From a virus: a DNA stretch of 64,000 bases. Below the pieces are notes generated by a model. It saw nothing but the letters and a program-made list of their open reading frames with translations. It had not been told where the DNA came from and made no database searches. Below, piece by piece: positions 5,742-32,002 of the stretch; position 1 is the first letter of the stretch, and every line of letters starts with the position of its first letter. The DNA lies in IMG/VR virus record IMGVR_UViG_3300040786_000016. The stretch is one strand, 5' to 3'. A program made the position numbers and the translations under genes.

Positions 5742-5877
5742 AAATTAAAAATAATTACAAAAGACTTGCTTTATCTAAATAAGTGTAGTATATTTGCATA
5801 AGAATTAAAACAAAGAAAAATAGTCTTTTATAAAAAAAGCGTATATTTATTAAACAACGTGGTAAAACACATAAAAT
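5742..5877 (+). promoter_or_regulatory. Promoter cassette for tRNA operon 2
   Basis: TATATTTG at 5789-5796 and ATATTTAT at 5843-5850; 5742-5835 is nearly identical to 19579-19673. Confidence 0.8.
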
Positions 5878-5885
5878 TAAAAACA

Positions 5886-5975
5886 ATGAGAACACTTAAC
5901 AACATATTTGATTTTGCATTTTTTGCAGCCGAAGAGGATTACTCTTTCGGAAGGTCATCTCTTGTCATAAGTTAA
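5886..5975 (+). CDS. Leader peptide 2 (MRTLNNIFDFAFFAAEEDYSFGRSSLVIS), putative attenuator for the Phe/Asp/Ala/Glu tRNA operon
   Basis: 29-codon ORF; residues 8-18 FDFAFFAAEED; AGGTCA (5952-5957) pairs with TGACCT (6007-6012) in the terminator. Confidence 0.8.
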   Translation: MRTLNNIFDFAFFAAEEDYSFGRSSLVIS

Positions 5976-5998
5976 CGAAACTCGTTTAACATAAATTG

Positions 5999-6030
5999 AT
6001 AAAGTCTGACCTAATAAGTCAGACTTTTAT
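5999..6030 (+). terminator. Intrinsic terminator (attenuator) before the first tRNA of operon 2
   Basis: AAAGTCTGAC-CTAATAA-GTCAGACTTTT. Confidence 0.8.
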
Positions 6031-6048
6031 GTAATAAAAATAAATAAT

Positions 6049-6120
6049 GGGACTGTAGCTCAGTTGGTAGAGCGAGGGACATGAAGTCCTGCGTCACAGA
6101 TTCGATTTCTGTTGGTCCCA
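6049..6120 (+). tRNA. trnF: tRNA, probably Phe(GAA); anticodon loop garbled
   Basis: Clear D and T arms; loop reads CATGAAG inside an AGGGA/TCCT stem. Confidence 0.65.
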
Positions 6121-6236
6121 CAAATTAAATTAAAATATGGAAAATTATTTAGAAGAAATAGAATTGACTGAAAAAAATTGTTAGTGTTAAAAAATAAACA
6201 AAAGAATTAGTTAGGGTTATTAAAAATACGAATAAA

Positions 6237-6450
6237 ATGGGTTTCAATAGGAAAGAACATTTTAAAAGTGGTGATATAGTTCTATTTAATGGGTTTGGGT
6301 TAATCATAGCTAAAATTACTGGGAGAAGTGATATAAATGGTAGGGTTGGTTATAATATCGGTAATTCCATGCATTTTGACCATAGTGTTATTAGAGAGGC
6401 GACTATGAATGAGATTAAAATGTTAGGAGAAAAAATCTTTAACTTTAAAA
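6237..6450 (+). CDS. Hypothetical protein inside the tRNA operon
   Basis: MGFNRKEHFKSGDIV...; the track ORF runs on into the tRNA, true end about 6450. Confidence 0.5.
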
Positions 6451-6459
6451 TAAAAATAA

Positions 6460-6531
6460 GGTGCTGTAACTCAGCGGTAGAGTGTTGGTTTGAAGAACCG
6501 ATGGTCGTGGGTTCGAATCCCACTGGCACCA
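6460..6531 (+). tRNA. trnF: tRNA-Phe(GAA)
   Basis: TTGGT-TTGAAGA-ACCGA arm; GGTGCTG/TGGCACC acceptor. Confidence 0.9.
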
Positions 6532-6595
6532 CAAAATATGGAACAACATTGGTCCCGTAATGCCATGGCTCGTGCACGAGTTACGGGACACCTAT

Positions 6596-6668
6596 GCTGC
6601 GTTCATCTAGGGGTTAGGATTTCAGGTTTTCAGCCTGACCACATGGGTTCGATTCCCATACGCAGTAC
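6596..6668 (+). tRNA. trnE: tRNA-Glu(TTC)
   Basis: TCAGG-TTTTCAG-CCTGA arm. Confidence 0.9.
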
Positions 6669-6703
6669 TATCTGGTTAAGATTCCAGTAATAAAATCTAA
6701 ATT

Positions 6704-6778
6704 GGTCTATTCGTTCAACGGCTAGGATGCTACCCTGTCACGGTAGAGATGAGAGTTCGATTCTCTCATAGACCGCCA
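6704..6778 (+). tRNA. trnD: tRNA-Asp(GTC), CCA encoded
   Basis: CTACC-CTGTCAC-GGTAG arm; G discriminator then CCA. Confidence 0.92.
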
Positions 6779-6904
6779 AGTTTACGTAAGCGATACTTAC
6801 TTTAGAAGTAAACAACTCATTGACGTTGTGTGACATATAAACTATGAGGTTGTGAAAGCAATATGGTTTCAATGAGAGTAACGTGTTATTCAAAGTCACA
6901 AAAT

Positions 6905-6975
6905 GCTCCTGTCGTCTATCGGTTGGGACATCAGGTTTTCGACCTGAGAAGGAGGGTCGATTCCCTTCGGGAGTA
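6905..6975 (+). tRNA. trnE: tRNA-Glu(TTC)
   Basis: TCAGG-TTTTCGA-CCTGA arm; GTCGTCTATCGGTT D arm. Confidence 0.85.
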
Positions 6976-6987
6976 CAAAATTAAATT

Positions 6988-7058
6988 GGGACTATAGTAC
7001 AACGGCTAGTACGATGCGCTTGCACCGCATAGATGGGGGTTCGGTTCCCCTAGCTCCA
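6988..7058 (+). tRNA. trnA: tRNA-Ala(TGC)
   Basis: ATGCG-CTTGCAC-CGCAT arm; G3-U70 wobble in the acceptor stem. Confidence 0.9.
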
Positions 7059-7075
7059 CAAATTTAAATAATATT

Positions 7076-7310
7076 ATGGTTAAAAGTGAGTTATGGAAAT
7101 TACAATTAGATAATATAAAAGTATATCTAAATAATAATGGACTGAACGTTGATAAAGTTATAAGGTGGCAAGGTGGTTTCGCACATGGAGGAACTAAACA
7201 TGGTTTAACAATAATAACAACGGTAATTATTAATGGTGAGGAAAAAGGTTTTACATTCCAAGACTAGCACTTACGGATAATGAAGTACTACAATTTTAGT
7301 AGTTAATAAT
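7076..7310 (+). CDS. Hypothetical protein inside the tRNA operon
   Basis: ORF 7076-7267, probably extended by an indel. Confidence 0.45.
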
Positions 7311-7325
7311 TTAAATTAAATAAAT

Positions 7326-7394
7326 GGCCCGTTCGTCTATCGGTTAGGACGCTCGGTTTTCAACCTAGAAAGAGGGTTCAACTCCTACGGGCTA
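7326..7394 (+). tRNA. trnE: tRNA-Glu(TTC)
   Basis: TTTTCAA loop; GGCCCGT/ACGGGCT acceptor. Confidence 0.8.
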
Positions 7395-7400
7395 CAATAA

Positions 7401-7474
7401 TCGAGGTAAGGTCCACTGGCGAAGGATACCCGTCTGTCACATGGGTGAACTGGTTTCGAATACCAGTATCTCGG
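7401..7474 (+). tRNA. trnD: tRNA-Asp(GTC), divergent body
   Basis: CCCGT-CTGTCAC-ATGGG arm; CTGGT-TTCGAAT-ACCAG T arm. Confidence 0.8.
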
Positions 7475-7572
7475 CAAAATAAAGAGTTCGAATTCTTGAC
7501 TATTTACAAAAATATGTTATGATTGTAAAAGAGTTCGAATTATGGAAAACAAATAATTGTGTAACCATAACC

Positions 7573-7597
7573 CATCAGTTTTAATTTAAAACTGATG
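7573..7597. terminator. Hairpin between the convergent tRNA operon 2 and the minus-strand gene
   Basis: CATCAGTTTT/AAAACTGATG. Confidence 0.65.
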
Positions 7598-9671
7598 ATG
7601 TTTAGGTTTATTTTCCAGATACTACTATTACAAAACTTGAATTACCACTAGCGTCAAATTTTTCGTAAGCTAAATCTTTATTAAAATTGAAATTATTTAA
7701 TTTCAAATCAAATAAGCTAGTTCAAAATCATAAACATAACCAAAGTAACCTTTATTAGGTTTTGGTTGACAAAAGTATTTAAATTTATCTCACTACCATA
7801 AACTGATGCATTATTTTTATATTGGGTTAAGTACATTTTACCAGATATTGAGGATACACCACCTATTCTAGTTATAAATATTGATGCATTTACATTTAAA
7901 TCATTAAGGATAAATGTGTCTACTCGATTACAACCAAATATTGAGTTTAATATTATTGACGATGATGAAATATTATATTGTGAAAACTCATTTACAGAAG
8001 GACTAGTATATCCATTACCAAAAGTTGAATTATATACTCTACCGCTATTAGTTATACTACCATTAGCTAAAAGTACACTATTCGAAAATGTATTATAATT
8101 ATCGATAGCCATAGCGTCTAATGCTTTAATATTTACTATTTCACCAATATTATCAATATTAGCTGACGTTAAAATGTTGAATCAGTAATGCTACCAATCT
8201 TTGATGATACGTATATTTTACGGCTACTACCATATCTTTGACCATAATCAGCAAATACTGTATTATTTAAATTAGTGACGTTTATGGAAGAAACAATATC
8301 TTTTGGGTAATTATTTTCTAATGGGATTATAGTAAAATCTTTTGCTGCTGTTTTCCCAGTTGATGTTAAACCACTAAAAATAGATAATGGTAGACTTATA
8401 TTCACACTATATGTTGTTTCGGAATTACTAATTGGAAATCTATAAGCTGAACCAACGGAAGGTGCGCTGGTTGTACCACTAATAAATGGATTATCGACAT
8501 TTTAGCTAAATCAGTATATGCATTTATCTCATAAGGTTCAGATAAAAGATATGCATTATTCACGTTAACACCAGTGTTGCTTATTGTGCAAAAATTTATA
8601 CCACCCATAGAATAAATTGTAGAACCACTAGTCCCACTAAAACCACTAGCTGATTTTTTAAAATTATACCATTCCAATTGTCTGTGTCTAATTTATATCT
8701 TCTATATTTTTGTTCTCTCAATCTTTATTTATTGATATTGACCCATCTAAATTTTCTCTACTTAAAATAAAACCATTTCTAGTACCAATTTGATTTGAAT
8801 TCTCATCATAAATAATATTATCTAAAAAATCGTATTTTAATTTATCACCAGCGTAAGTAACACTTTCAGCTTCTCTTGAAAAGAGTCAACAGCTATTGCT
8901 GTTAATATTATAGTTTCTACTTTAGGTACTGTGTTCTCAGCAGCACTCATTGACATATATTCAGTACCATCATGTACCTCAGTATTTAAAATACCACTTG
9001 GTTTAATTACTGGTTTTACCATAAATATCGTTTATTACAATATTAGAAGGTATATTAGGATATCTTTTTTTGAAAATTGTATTTGTATTCCGATATCATT
9101 AGCATAAGTTAATCTAGGTGAAAATGATATATAACCAGCGTTAAAGTAATCAAGGATATTAACATAGCTACCAGTAGTAGTACTCGCACCACTAGGTGCG
9201 TAAACACATAAAACGGTATCGCCATCAGCGGCAATAGTATCTGGAACGTTATCAAATTGTGAATAAGCACCAGAAGAACCGATAATAGTGTGTATTTCTG
9301 TTCTATCACTTGAGTTTGTACCATTTATTTGGTAAATAGTTTTATAATCATTCAATACATAACGGTTACCAACAGTTAAACCACTAGAATTAACTAAATC
9401 TGTCAATTGACTATAAGAACCAGTAACGAATTCAATTTTAGTTGGTAAATTAAAATATGTTGTTGCTGAGATTGTAGAACCTTTTAGACCATTAGTAAAA
9501 TTTGTGGTACCACTTATAGTGCCCCAGTAAAATTGGTATCTATTCTAGGTTTAAGATACGTTACTAAGTCGGTTAAATCAGTTCGTACTGTAGTGTTATC
9601 GATAACAACTGGTATTATTGAATTTGGGGTTAATATACCAACGGCTAATTCGCTTATTTTTTATCTGACAT
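7580..9671 (-). CDS. Large Gly/Ser/Thr/Asn-rich protein, probably virion structural or tail-fibre-like (many indels)
   Basis: Collinear minus-strand ORF fragments 9406-9035, 8677-8402, 8405-8169, 8112-7717; start MSDKKISEL...; ATATTTAT motif upstream. Confidence 0.55.
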
Positions 9672-11259: not shown

Positions 11260-11333
11260 GGTGTGATAGCTCAGTCTGATAGAGCACTGGCCTGAAAAGT
11301 CAGGTGTCGGTGGTTTAAATCCATCTCCCACCA
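11260..11333 (+). tRNA. trnF: tRNA-Phe(GAA)
   Basis: CTGGC-CTGAAAA-GTCAG arm. Confidence 0.85.
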
Positions 11334-11417
11334 CAAATTAGTGAGCCATTATAAGGTGATAAGACTGCGACAATATCGAGGATAGTAAGTGTATCGCAAC
11401 ATTTGCCCTCTCACTAA

Positions 11418-11488
11418 GTGAAAGTACCTTAATGGATAAAGAACCTGTGTCGAACAGGTGCATGCGAGTTCGAGTCTCGTCTTTCACA
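11418..11488 (+). tRNA. trnR: tRNA-Arg(TCG), non-canonical position 33 as read
   Basis: ACCTG-TGTCGAA-CAGGT arm; GGATA D loop (A20); GTGAAAG/CTTTCAC acceptor. Confidence 0.7.
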
Positions 11489-11666
11489 CTATAAACAGAG
11501 TATTGATTCTGATTATGACGTAATAATATCGACCTAGGAAGAGATGTTATTATGGCGATTTCAATAGTTAAGTGGTAACTTTATATCATGGGTTATTCGT
11601 TGGCCCCTACACCCAGTAGAAAACTGAATAAACAAAAAATGATACCATTGGGGAATGGTATCAAAT

Positions 11667-11736
11667 GCGAGAATAGCTCAGCGGTAGAGCGTACCTATAA
11701 AACGGGATGTCGATGGTTCAAATCCATCTTCTCGCA
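11667..11736 (+). tRNA. tRNA, anticodon unresolved
   Basis: GCGAGAA/TTCTCGC acceptor with canonical D and T arms; anticodon arm garbled. Confidence 0.75.
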
Positions 11737-11751
11737 CTAGAATTTTATCAA

Positions 11752-11812
11752 GGGTAGTTAACCTAGTGGTTAGCTGTACATTATAGTGTGGGCTCGAATC
11801 CCAAACTACCCA
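11752..11812 (+). tRNA. Short or degenerate tRNA-like element
   Basis: GGGTAGT/ACTACCC acceptor, TGGG-CTCGAAT-CCCA T arm, shortened D and anticodon arms. Confidence 0.45.
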
Positions 11813-11832
11813 CTAACATTAAATAATTTAAT

Positions 11833-16815: not shown

Positions 16816-16930
16816 CAAATTATAAACATAAAACCCTAATATAAACTATTAGGGTTTTTATTAAAATTAGGTATTGTTAGATATTATCTATATATTTGCA
16901 ATCTAATTAAAACAATTAAAATCTAGTAAA

Positions 16931-17699
16931 ATGTTTAAAAAATTTTACACCGTTTCAAGAACTTAAACGTTCTTATAAAACAATTATGGTAACTACATGG
17001 TTATTATTAATGTTCTCATTTTGGTTTTAGTATCTTCTATAGGTACAACGCATCTTTCCCAACACCTATACAAGTCTTAACTGGTTTAGTTGATGTATGG
17101 AATGATGGTTTAATTATGCATTTATTTAATTCGTTATCTTTATGTTTCCAAGCTATTTTTTATTCCATTATTATATCTATGGTATTTGCTTATCTAACTA
17201 CAATATCATTTACTAAATCGTTAGGTACTTTCTTATCTAAATTAAGATATTTACCACCGACTGGAATTGCCTTTATGTAACTATTATGGTAAGTAACGCA
17301 AGAACAATTCAAGTTTGGGTGCTTGTAATATTTATGTCAACATTTTAATCACAAGTCTTATACAAATGATTAAAGATATCCCAAATGAAGAATTTGACCA
17401 TGCTAAAACGCTAGGTTGTAATAGATGGGAAATTCTATGGAAGTAGTGATTAAAGGTCGTATTGATTATGTTATTGAACTAGTTAGACAAAACTTAGCAA
17501 TTGTATGGGTTATGTTAGTTACTGTTGAGAGTATTCTTATTGCCGCTGGTGGTTTAGGTGTTCTAATTAAAAATGGAGATAGACTTGGTGCTAATGGTCG
17601 TGTTATTGCAGTACAAGGTATTATAATATTAGTTGGTATTTCTTTAGATTTTTATTAACTAGATTACGCAAATTATTATTCACATATTCAAATTATTAA
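16931..17699 (+). CDS. ABC transporter permease (NitT/TauT family)
   Basis: Hydrophobic frames with ...EEFDHAKTLGCNRWEILWEVVIKGR... EAA-like loop. Confidence 0.8.
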
Positions 17700-19578: not shown

Positions 19579-19690
19579 AAATTAAAAATAATTATAAAAA
19601 GACTTGTTTTATCTAAATAAGTGTAGTATATTTGCATAAGAATTAAAACAAACAAAAATAGTCTTTTATAAAAGACATATATTTATAACA
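19579..19690 (+). promoter_or_regulatory. Promoter cassette for tRNA operon 3 (copy of 5742-5835)
   Basis: TATATTTG at 19627-19634, ATATTTAT at 19679-19686. Confidence 0.8.
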
Positions 19691-31671: not shown

Positions 31672-32002
31672 ATGAAAGTAGCGGTAATTGGTGGTAGAGA
31701 TTTTAAAGATTATGAACTTGTTAAAAAACACTGTCTAAATTAACCATTACAGTTATTGTTTCTGGTGGTGCTTTAGGTGCTGATTTATTAGCTGAAAGAT
31801 ACGCTGATGAAAACAATATACCTAAAAAATATTCTTACCTGATTGGAAAACATACGGTAAAATAGCTGGTTTTAAGAAATACAGATATAATAAATGAGGG
31901 TGAATTAACTATAGCTTTTGGGATGGTGAGTCTAAAGGAACCAAAGATAGTATAAATAAAGCTAGAAATTTAAAAAAAAGGGTAATAATAGTTGGTTATT
32001 AA
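31672..32002 (+). CDS. SLOG family (DUF2493/YspA-like) protein
   Basis: VAVIGGRDF...IVSGGALGADLLAERYA...AG..RN...AFWDGESKGTKDSI. Confidence 0.8.

Follow-up and report, generated by a model that had tools for sequence, protein, structure and literature searches.

A probable ribosome-mediated leader-peptide attenuator upstream of a phage tRNA operon

Transcription of bacterial and phage tRNA genes is thought to be controlled mainly at promoters, via growth rate and the stringent response. The 64,000-nt stretch of viral DNA analyzed here (IMG/VR record IMGVR_UViG_3300040786_000016, referred to below as the window) is phage-like, has a G+C content of 28%, and carries 26 tRNA genes recognized by ARAGORN in its first 24 kb. 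One group of these genes is preceded by a short open reading frame (ORF) with a run of codons for the very amino acids that the downstream tRNAs carry, which raises the question of whether translation of this ORF could control transcription of the tRNA genes. The initial annotation of this locus had answered in the affirmative, proposing a leader-peptide attenuator of the tRNA operon. All predictions of this proposal that could be tested at the sequence level turned out in its favor; nothing has been shown experimentally, and there are no expression, ribosome, or termination data. Because the start and frame of the ORF, the matching codon run, a terminator with compensatory changes, a mutually exclusive antiterminator, the absence of room for a promoter between the terminator and the first tRNA gene, two sister modules, and 21 homologues all agree, we consider it probable, albeit well short of certain, that this locus (module 2 of the three described here) is a ribosome-mediated, multivalent leader-peptide transcription attenuator that makes tRNA synthesis demand driven.

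The leader ORF, read directly from the sequence, occupies positions 5886 to 5975 of the plus strand, with the ATG codon at 5886 and the TAA codon at 5973-5975, and its 29 sense codons specify the peptide MRTLNNIFDFAFFAAEEDYSFGRSSLVIS. Eleven consecutive residues had been said to come solely from Phe, Asp, Ala, and Glu, and this is indeed the case for residues 8 to 18, which form the sequence FDFAFFAAEED (positions 5907-5939, plus strand; TTT GAT TTT GCA TTT TTT GCA GCC GAA GAG GAT, the last codon, GAT, being at 5937-5939). In the six-frame translation of the 64-kb window (93,656 residues), this is the longest run composed of these four amino acids, the runner-up having 6 residues, and it immediately precedes the only Phe/Glu/Asp/Ala tRNA operon of the window. 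Short ORFs and hairpins are abundant in DNA with 28% G+C, and it could be argued that an ordinary short ORF and a terminator just happen to precede tRNA genes. However, with a combined frequency of the four amino acids of 0.151 among the six-frame residues, only ∼1e-4 such runs are expected per window (our own arithmetic), and chance would have to account as well for the 21 homologues and for a design that is repeated three times, which makes this explanation a very unlikely one. The occurrence of the Phe/Asp/Ala/Glu run in front of the matching tRNA operon is real and lies far beyond chance. The last codons of the run are covered by a hairpin, hairpin P (CCGAAGAG / CUCUUUCGG; 5929-5950, plus strand), that forms in all homologues, its stem differing between groups by compensatory changes, and is located just upstream of the antiterminator rod described below. 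Its role can only be inferred; it may be a candidate pause signal or a spacer hairpin.

The operon itself comprises eight tRNA genes recognized by ARAGORN within positions 6049-7475, all on the plus strand. Seven of these are of the types represented in the run, namely, Phe(GAA) at 6460-6532, three Glu(UUC) genes at 6596-6668, 6905-6976, and 7325-7395, two Asp(GUC) genes at 6704-6778 and 7402-7475 (the latter below the Rfam tRNA threshold), and Ala(UGC) at 6987-7059; two small ORFs lie between the tRNA genes of the 6460-7475 region. The original statement that all eight tRNAs belong to these four types therefore holds for seven of them but not, in its simple form, for the first (6049-6121), which is not a clean tRNA-Phe. 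This gene has a Phe-type body and a 7-nt anticodon loop that reads CAUGAAG, with an A at position 33 and the GAA triplet shifted by one base, which led ARAGORN to label it Ser(UGA). Its D-arm is identical to those of the Phe(GAA) tRNAs of the homologues L014 and L023 and differs by one inserted base from that of L053, and it occupies the same place, the first after the terminator, as do the Phe tRNAs in all three of these homologues. Judging from its sequence, it derives from a tRNA-Phe whose loop has shifted, and what it decodes is uncertain; it could be either a decaying copy or a case of unusual decoding. The distance from the terminator to this first tRNA gene is 20 nt, which leaves no room for a promoter directly in front of it, and this spacer contains no TAnnTTTG box; internal promoters deeper in the operon are not excluded. 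At the other end, a hairpin (7572-7598) followed by convergent minus-strand genes bounds the transcription unit. Elsewhere in the window, a group of tRNA genes for Phe(GAA), Arg(UCG), and Phe(AAA) at positions 11260-11814 has no promoter-leader-terminator module in front of it, so that control of this kind does not extend to all tRNAs of this phage.

Upstream of the leader ORF, a host-type promoter candidate could be read from the sequence at positions 5766-5796 of the plus strand, consisting of TTG (5766-5768) and, after 20 nt, TATATTTG (5789-5796); its function as a promoter is inferred. We take this arrangement to fit the −33/−7 (TAnnTTTG) promoter pattern of Bacteroidota. The candidate lies within a 126-nt repeat that is common to the upstream regions of modules 2 and 3, and the TTG...TA(T/C)(A/C)TTTG pattern is kept upstream of the module 2 homologues. 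With the spacing fixed at 19 nt (it is 20 nt in the module 2 promoter), the −33/−7 pattern gave one unrelated match, at position 31992. A second conserved box, TATATTTAT (core ATATTTAT), is found at positions 5842-5850 of the plus strand, 35 nt 5′ of the ATG codon. The box is common to modules 1 and 2, and it precedes all three leaders of the window as well as leaders of relatives. It is possibly a second promoter, but its role is unknown. In the homologue L069, the ATATTTAT box is only ∼8 nt 5′ of the ATG codon, and, should this box act as a promoter, the leader ORF of L069 might be translated from a nearly leaderless transcript. In modules 2 and 3, as in their relatives, a short A/U-rich palindrome is also found between the host-type promoter and the ATATTTAT box (positions 5820-5850 and 19660-19690 of the window), for example, GTCTTTTATAAAAGAC in module 3 of the window and GACTTTTTAAAAAAAGTC in module 2 of the relatives G010 and G006. 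The TATATTTGCA promoter box occurs a third time in the window, within positions 16891-16990; an 11-codon ORF and a small hairpin come after it there, without any tRNA genes behind them.

Between the leader ORF and the first tRNA gene lies an intrinsic terminator (6001-6028, plus strand) of the structure AAAGUCUGAC-CUAAUAA-GUCAGACUUU followed by U residues, with a folding energy of −12.3 kcal/mol and a z score of −5.37. The hairpin itself covers 6001-6027; the U tract after it is short in the window, UUUU, compared with at least 7 U residues in 20 out of 20 relatives. The 5′ arm of this terminator can alternatively be engaged in a 61-nt antiterminator rod (5952-6012, plus strand) formed by pairing of AGGUCA with UGACCU, of CU with AG, and of UUGUCAUA with the UGAUAA region, and capped by an apical hairpin. 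Several components of this structure had been recognized in the initial annotation. The AGGTCA segment is located, as had been claimed, 12 nt past the last codon of the run (5952-5957, with the GAT codon ending at 5939), and it is complementary to TGACCT, but these 6 bp are merely the base of the rod. The TGACCT segment (6007-6012) is shared by the terminator 5′ arm and loop; more precisely, the arm ends in TGAC and the loop begins with CT. The hairpin described as overlapping the stop codon, GUUAACGA/UCGUUUAAC (GTTAACGA/TCGTTTAAC; 5971-5990, plus strand), does contain the stop codon at 5973-5975 but is not a separate element, as it forms the tip of the rod. The rod 5′ strand and tip span codons 23 to 29 and the stop codon of the leader ORF.

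In the nascent RNA from 5952 to 6017, i.e., before the terminator 3′ arm exists, the rod is the minimum-free-energy fold (−15.6 kcal/mol, z score of −4.21), and none of 200 shuffled sequences folds as well. When the stretch occupied by a ribosome on the run is masked, RNA ending at the terminator loop prefers the rod over any other fold, in agreement with the earlier suggestion that the spacing would let a ribosome stalled in the run leave the AGGTCA segment exposed; moving the masked ribosome to the stop codon yields the terminator instead. The rod also wins in the absence of a ribosome, which makes read-through the predicted default for untranslated transcripts, unlike the trp attenuator, in which an untranslated leader terminates via 1:2 pairing. 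In the full-length RNA with the upstream part masked by a ribosome, the fold that includes the terminator has a slight energetic advantage over the rod (−17.5 versus −15.9 kcal/mol), so the attenuator model depends on the folding kinetics, with the rod forming first.

These alternative folds suggest the following mechanism. Transcription would start ∼85 to 90 nt 5′ of the leader ORF, and a ribosome would begin translation of the leader. When charged Phe, Asp, Ala, or Glu tRNAs are scarce, slow decoding would make the ribosome stall within positions 5907-5939 and leave the RNA from position 5952 onward free to fold into the rod; sequestration of the terminator 5′ arm would then let the polymerase read through into the eight tRNA genes. 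When decoding is fast, the ribosome would proceed to the stop codon through the last eight codons, all of them located in the rod 5′ strand and tip, and, with the rod blocked in this way, the terminator at 6001-6028 would fold and transcription would end. The predicted net effect is a negative feedback, with the tRNA set made on demand, and this feedback on decoding capacity would be direct because the regulated tRNAs themselves decode the run. Translation of the leader, the kinetics, the direction of control, and the identity of the sensed signal, which may be either the abundance or the charging of tRNA, are inferences. A weak point of the model is that attenuation presupposes coupling of transcription and translation in the presumed Bacteroidota host, where the existence of such coupling is unknown. 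Other points that count against it are the shortness of the outer helix and of the U tract in the window, the closeness of the rod and terminator energies at equilibrium, and, among the homologues described below, residues from outside the set in some runs and additional tRNAs that lack a leader codon.

The direction of control could, in principle, be reversed, with efficient translation of the leader causing read-through and thereby a positive feedback on the tRNA supply. Attenuators of the pyrBI type, in which a closely following ribosome blocks the terminator, provide a precedent for that polarity. In module 2, however, a gap of 25 nt separates the end of the stop codon from the terminator 5′ arm, placing the arm out of reach of a terminating ribosome, and the RNA with a ribosome masked at the stop codon adopts the terminator fold; such a reversal appears very improbable. 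It is also conceivable, although unlikely, that stalling in the leader acts not on termination but on another step, such as processing of the tRNA precursor, its stability, or transcript cleavage. This would explain the codon run and the translation signals equally well, and the equilibrium energies of the rod and the terminator are close, but it leaves unexplained the repeated complementarity between the terminator arm and the ORF, which comes in four solutions in the homologues and recurs in three modules (see below).

Homologues of module 2 were sought by pattern scans of the IMG/VR and JGI/ENA metagenomes, which yielded 21 distinct versions, all on contigs of uncultured giant phages (up to 362 kb) from freshwater, ice, estuary, and marine samples. 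One set of homologues was fished with the terminator loop and the others with AGGTCA and TGTCATAAGTTAAC; as these patterns fixed one side of the helix, each set is unbiased only for the other side. No close relative was found in the INPHARED phage collection, where only the tRNA genes matched, and a search for relatives of the 76-aa protein encoded just upstream found none. The sequencing runs that carry module DNA were exclusively DNA metagenomes from ice, freshwater, estuary, and marine sources, with no RNA run found.

Conservation of the leader bears the marks of translation up to the end of the run and of RNA structure beyond it. The ATG codon is invariant in all 20 aligned homologues and is also present in L069, the reading frame through the run is kept in 21 of 21, and the indels between the ATG codon and the end of the run (in L005 and L060) are of 3 nt. 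The sole 1-nt deletion, in L007, falls after the run; it changes the tail of the peptide, leaves AGGTCA and the following bases intact, and makes hairpin P perfect, a pattern that points to a frame-level constraint upstream of the run end and an RNA-level constraint downstream of it. As its codons match the tRNAs encoded downstream, the run could also be imagined to bind their anticodons directly, without any ribosome, in the manner of a T-box or a tRNA sponge. Such a sensor is hardly credible, given that the conserved ATG codon, the in-frame stop codon, and the 3-nt indels all argue for translation and that nothing in the module resembles the T-box antiterminator bulge. An Rfam scan of positions 1-24000 of the window matched only tRNA models at the gathering score, with no match to T-box or to the Trp, His, Leu, Thr, or Phe leader families.

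Within the run, the composition is kept and the order varies: the versions include FDFAFFAAEED, FDFAFEAAFED, FDFAFFAAEADE, FDFAFEAAEAD, and DFRFETAAFED. Some of the swaps within the set, such as TTT to GAA in codon 13 and GAA to TTT in codon 16, require three base changes. Residues from outside the set interrupt the run in some leaders (R and T in L005, I in L023, and N in L007). Genes for Phe, Glu, and Asp tRNAs follow in every homologue with enough downstream DNA, and a tRNA-Ala gene follows in all but L007, L065, and the short contigs L064 and L067. Additional tRNAs encoded in the operons of some homologues (His, Met, Gln, and one with the anticodon UCA) have no codon in the leader; the lone possible match of this kind, an ACT codon in L061 with a tRNA-Thr(AGT) gene downstream, is too thin to count. 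The tRNA with the anticodon UCA, labeled "SeC" by ARAGORN, was observed in the module 2 operons of several relatives (L042, ∼19866, in G010, the same place in G006, and also L014), and it is possibly a UGA-reading suppressor. Several relatives also encode tRNA-like genes with 4-nt anticodon calls (agac and ttcg). In the marine metagenome contig L065, an almost identical leader is followed by a repetitive string of tRNA genes (7 for Asp, 3 for Pro, and 2 for Gln) that represents either a contig artifact or a recent expansion of the array.

The downstream RNA structures are preserved in a different way. Terminator stems show compensatory changes (GUCUGAC, GCCUGAC, GCUCUGA, GUUUGGC, and GCUCGACCA); counting of pairs on the MAFFT alignment gave 75.5% paired for the terminator, a value muddied by stems that are out of register. 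The rod, with AGGUCA paired with the terminator arm and loop, is the best nascent-RNA fold in 18 of the 20 homologues examined. Where the terminator differs, a new complementarity to the 3′ end of the ORF is found, resulting in four different solutions. Thus, L060 has an unrelated terminator, yet its GGUCAAAC pairs with GUUUGGCU; in L054, the loop sequence CCU is changed to AGU, and ACUGUCA now pairs with UGACAGU; the pairing in L069 is between UGGUC and GACCA, where an A-U pair has become U-A and, by the same change, Arg has become Trp in the peptide. Formal support for covariation is weak: on the MAFFT alignment, RNAalifold found the 6-bp outer helix alone and gave a covariation term of ∼0. 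The outer helix is nearly invariant (in part because the search patterns imposed this), and the interior cannot be aligned. The inner rod is too rich in indels to be aligned by sequence, and folds of individual sequences were relied on instead. The anatomy of module 2, the nonrandom nature of its run, its conservation, and its alternative folds are thus matters of observation, to which the two other modules of the window can be added.

Modules 1 and 3 have the same layout as module 2 but unrelated sequences. In module 1, the leader MKNLTILLVLVLCSLVVSTMGYSC precedes tRNA genes for Cys, Val, and Leu; in module 3, the leader MKTMTTYQPKQYTQGGLRSANWVC precedes tRNA genes for Tyr, Pro, Lys, Gly, Gln, and Thr, among others. 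Comparison of the three leaders with the three tRNA sets gave a strictly diagonal matrix in the window and in the relatives G008, G009, and G010, and in the module 3 leader of G010, an uninterrupted stretch of 17 residues is drawn from precisely the six amino acids that its downstream tRNAs carry. In both modules, 6 to 9 nt of the terminator 5′ arm can pair inside the ORF, in 6 out of 6 cases (the window, G010, and G009). The ORF segment of module 1 varies together with the terminator between phages, as in ATGGGTT/AACCCAT, GGGCTTT/AAAGCCC, and GATGGGTT/AACCCATC.

The sister modules also bear on the possibility that the leader is simply a small phage peptide with a function of its own, followed by a leaky, unregulated terminator, and that its match to the tRNAs is incidental or reflects codon adaptation to the phage tRNAs. 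The module 2 peptide is well conserved in its length and at its ends, with an MRTL..N start and a GRS..VIS end, and the module 1 peptide resembles a signal peptide, both of which speak for this view. However, the C-terminal conservation is at the nucleotide level, as L007 shifts the frame but keeps the bases and L069 replaces R with W while the pairing stays; a structured peptide would not tolerate the Phe-to-Glu and Glu-to-Phe swaps seen in the run; and the coincidence with the tRNA genes would be needed three times, with unrelated peptides. This explanation is therefore an unlikely one, on a par with that of control at the level of processing or stability, and attenuation by the translated leader remains the preferred interpretation. 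A more speculative extension of the attenuator model, which we consider doubtful, although somewhat less so than these two alternatives, is that the modules, acting on single tRNA groups, also sense tRNA loss inflicted by the host, for example, through anticodon nucleases or tRNA-depleting defense systems, and switch on replacement tRNAs only for the codon classes under attack, having arisen from a single duplicated promoter-leader cassette in which the peptide was rewritten for each cargo.

Module 2 shares individual features with several known systems. The ilvGMEDA leader with its Ile, Val, and Leu codons and the thr leader with its Thr and Ile codons are multivalent enterobacterial attenuators, and, like module 2, they combine a short promoter-proximal ORF and a codon run for multiple amino acids with mutually exclusive terminator and antiterminator structures chosen by the ribosome position. 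They show no sequence relation to module 2, which differs from them in being carried by a phage, in sensing four amino acids, and in targeting tRNA genes instead of biosynthetic enzymes, whereby the product feeds back directly on the sensor. In addition, module 2 lacks an anti-antiterminator of the 1:2 type, and the 5′ strand of its antiterminator is part of the ORF, in the portion that leads up to and includes the stop codon. The pheST operon of Escherichia coli, with its Phe-rich leader, PheM, is similar in that its attenuator senses the supply of charged tRNA-Phe and controls a component of the translation apparatus, but its target is a synthetase, it responds to a single amino acid, and it resides on a bacterial chromosome. 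The distance from the regulatory codons to the terminator, 89 nt in module 2, is of the same order as in the trp and his attenuators (trpL and hisL; ∼80 to 90 nt in trp). These attenuators also resemble module 2 in that stalling of the ribosome frees the antiterminator strand and in the possibility that pausing is signaled by a hairpin close to the run. T-box elements likewise couple the status of tRNA to read-through of a terminator in front of translation-related genes, but they bind uncharged tRNA directly and need no ribosome. Attenuation of tRNA genes did not turn up in full-text literature searches or in a targeted look at a genome-wide attenuator survey. Compared to the known systems, the distinguishing features of module 2 are the tRNA-gene target, the giant-phage carrier, and the location of the antiterminator 5′ strand in the ORF without an anti-antiterminator.

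If the attenuator model is correct, module 2 would represent a new use of attenuation, a product-feedback loop acting on decoding capacity, in which a test ORF is decoded by the very tRNAs that it controls. Such a loop would account for the way in which giant phages adjust their dozens of tRNA genes to a host tRNA pool that does not fit a genome with 28% G+C. The disjoint amino acid sets of the three sister modules would provide built-in specificity controls, and the leader peptide would serve as a readable label of the tRNAs that form one regulatory unit.
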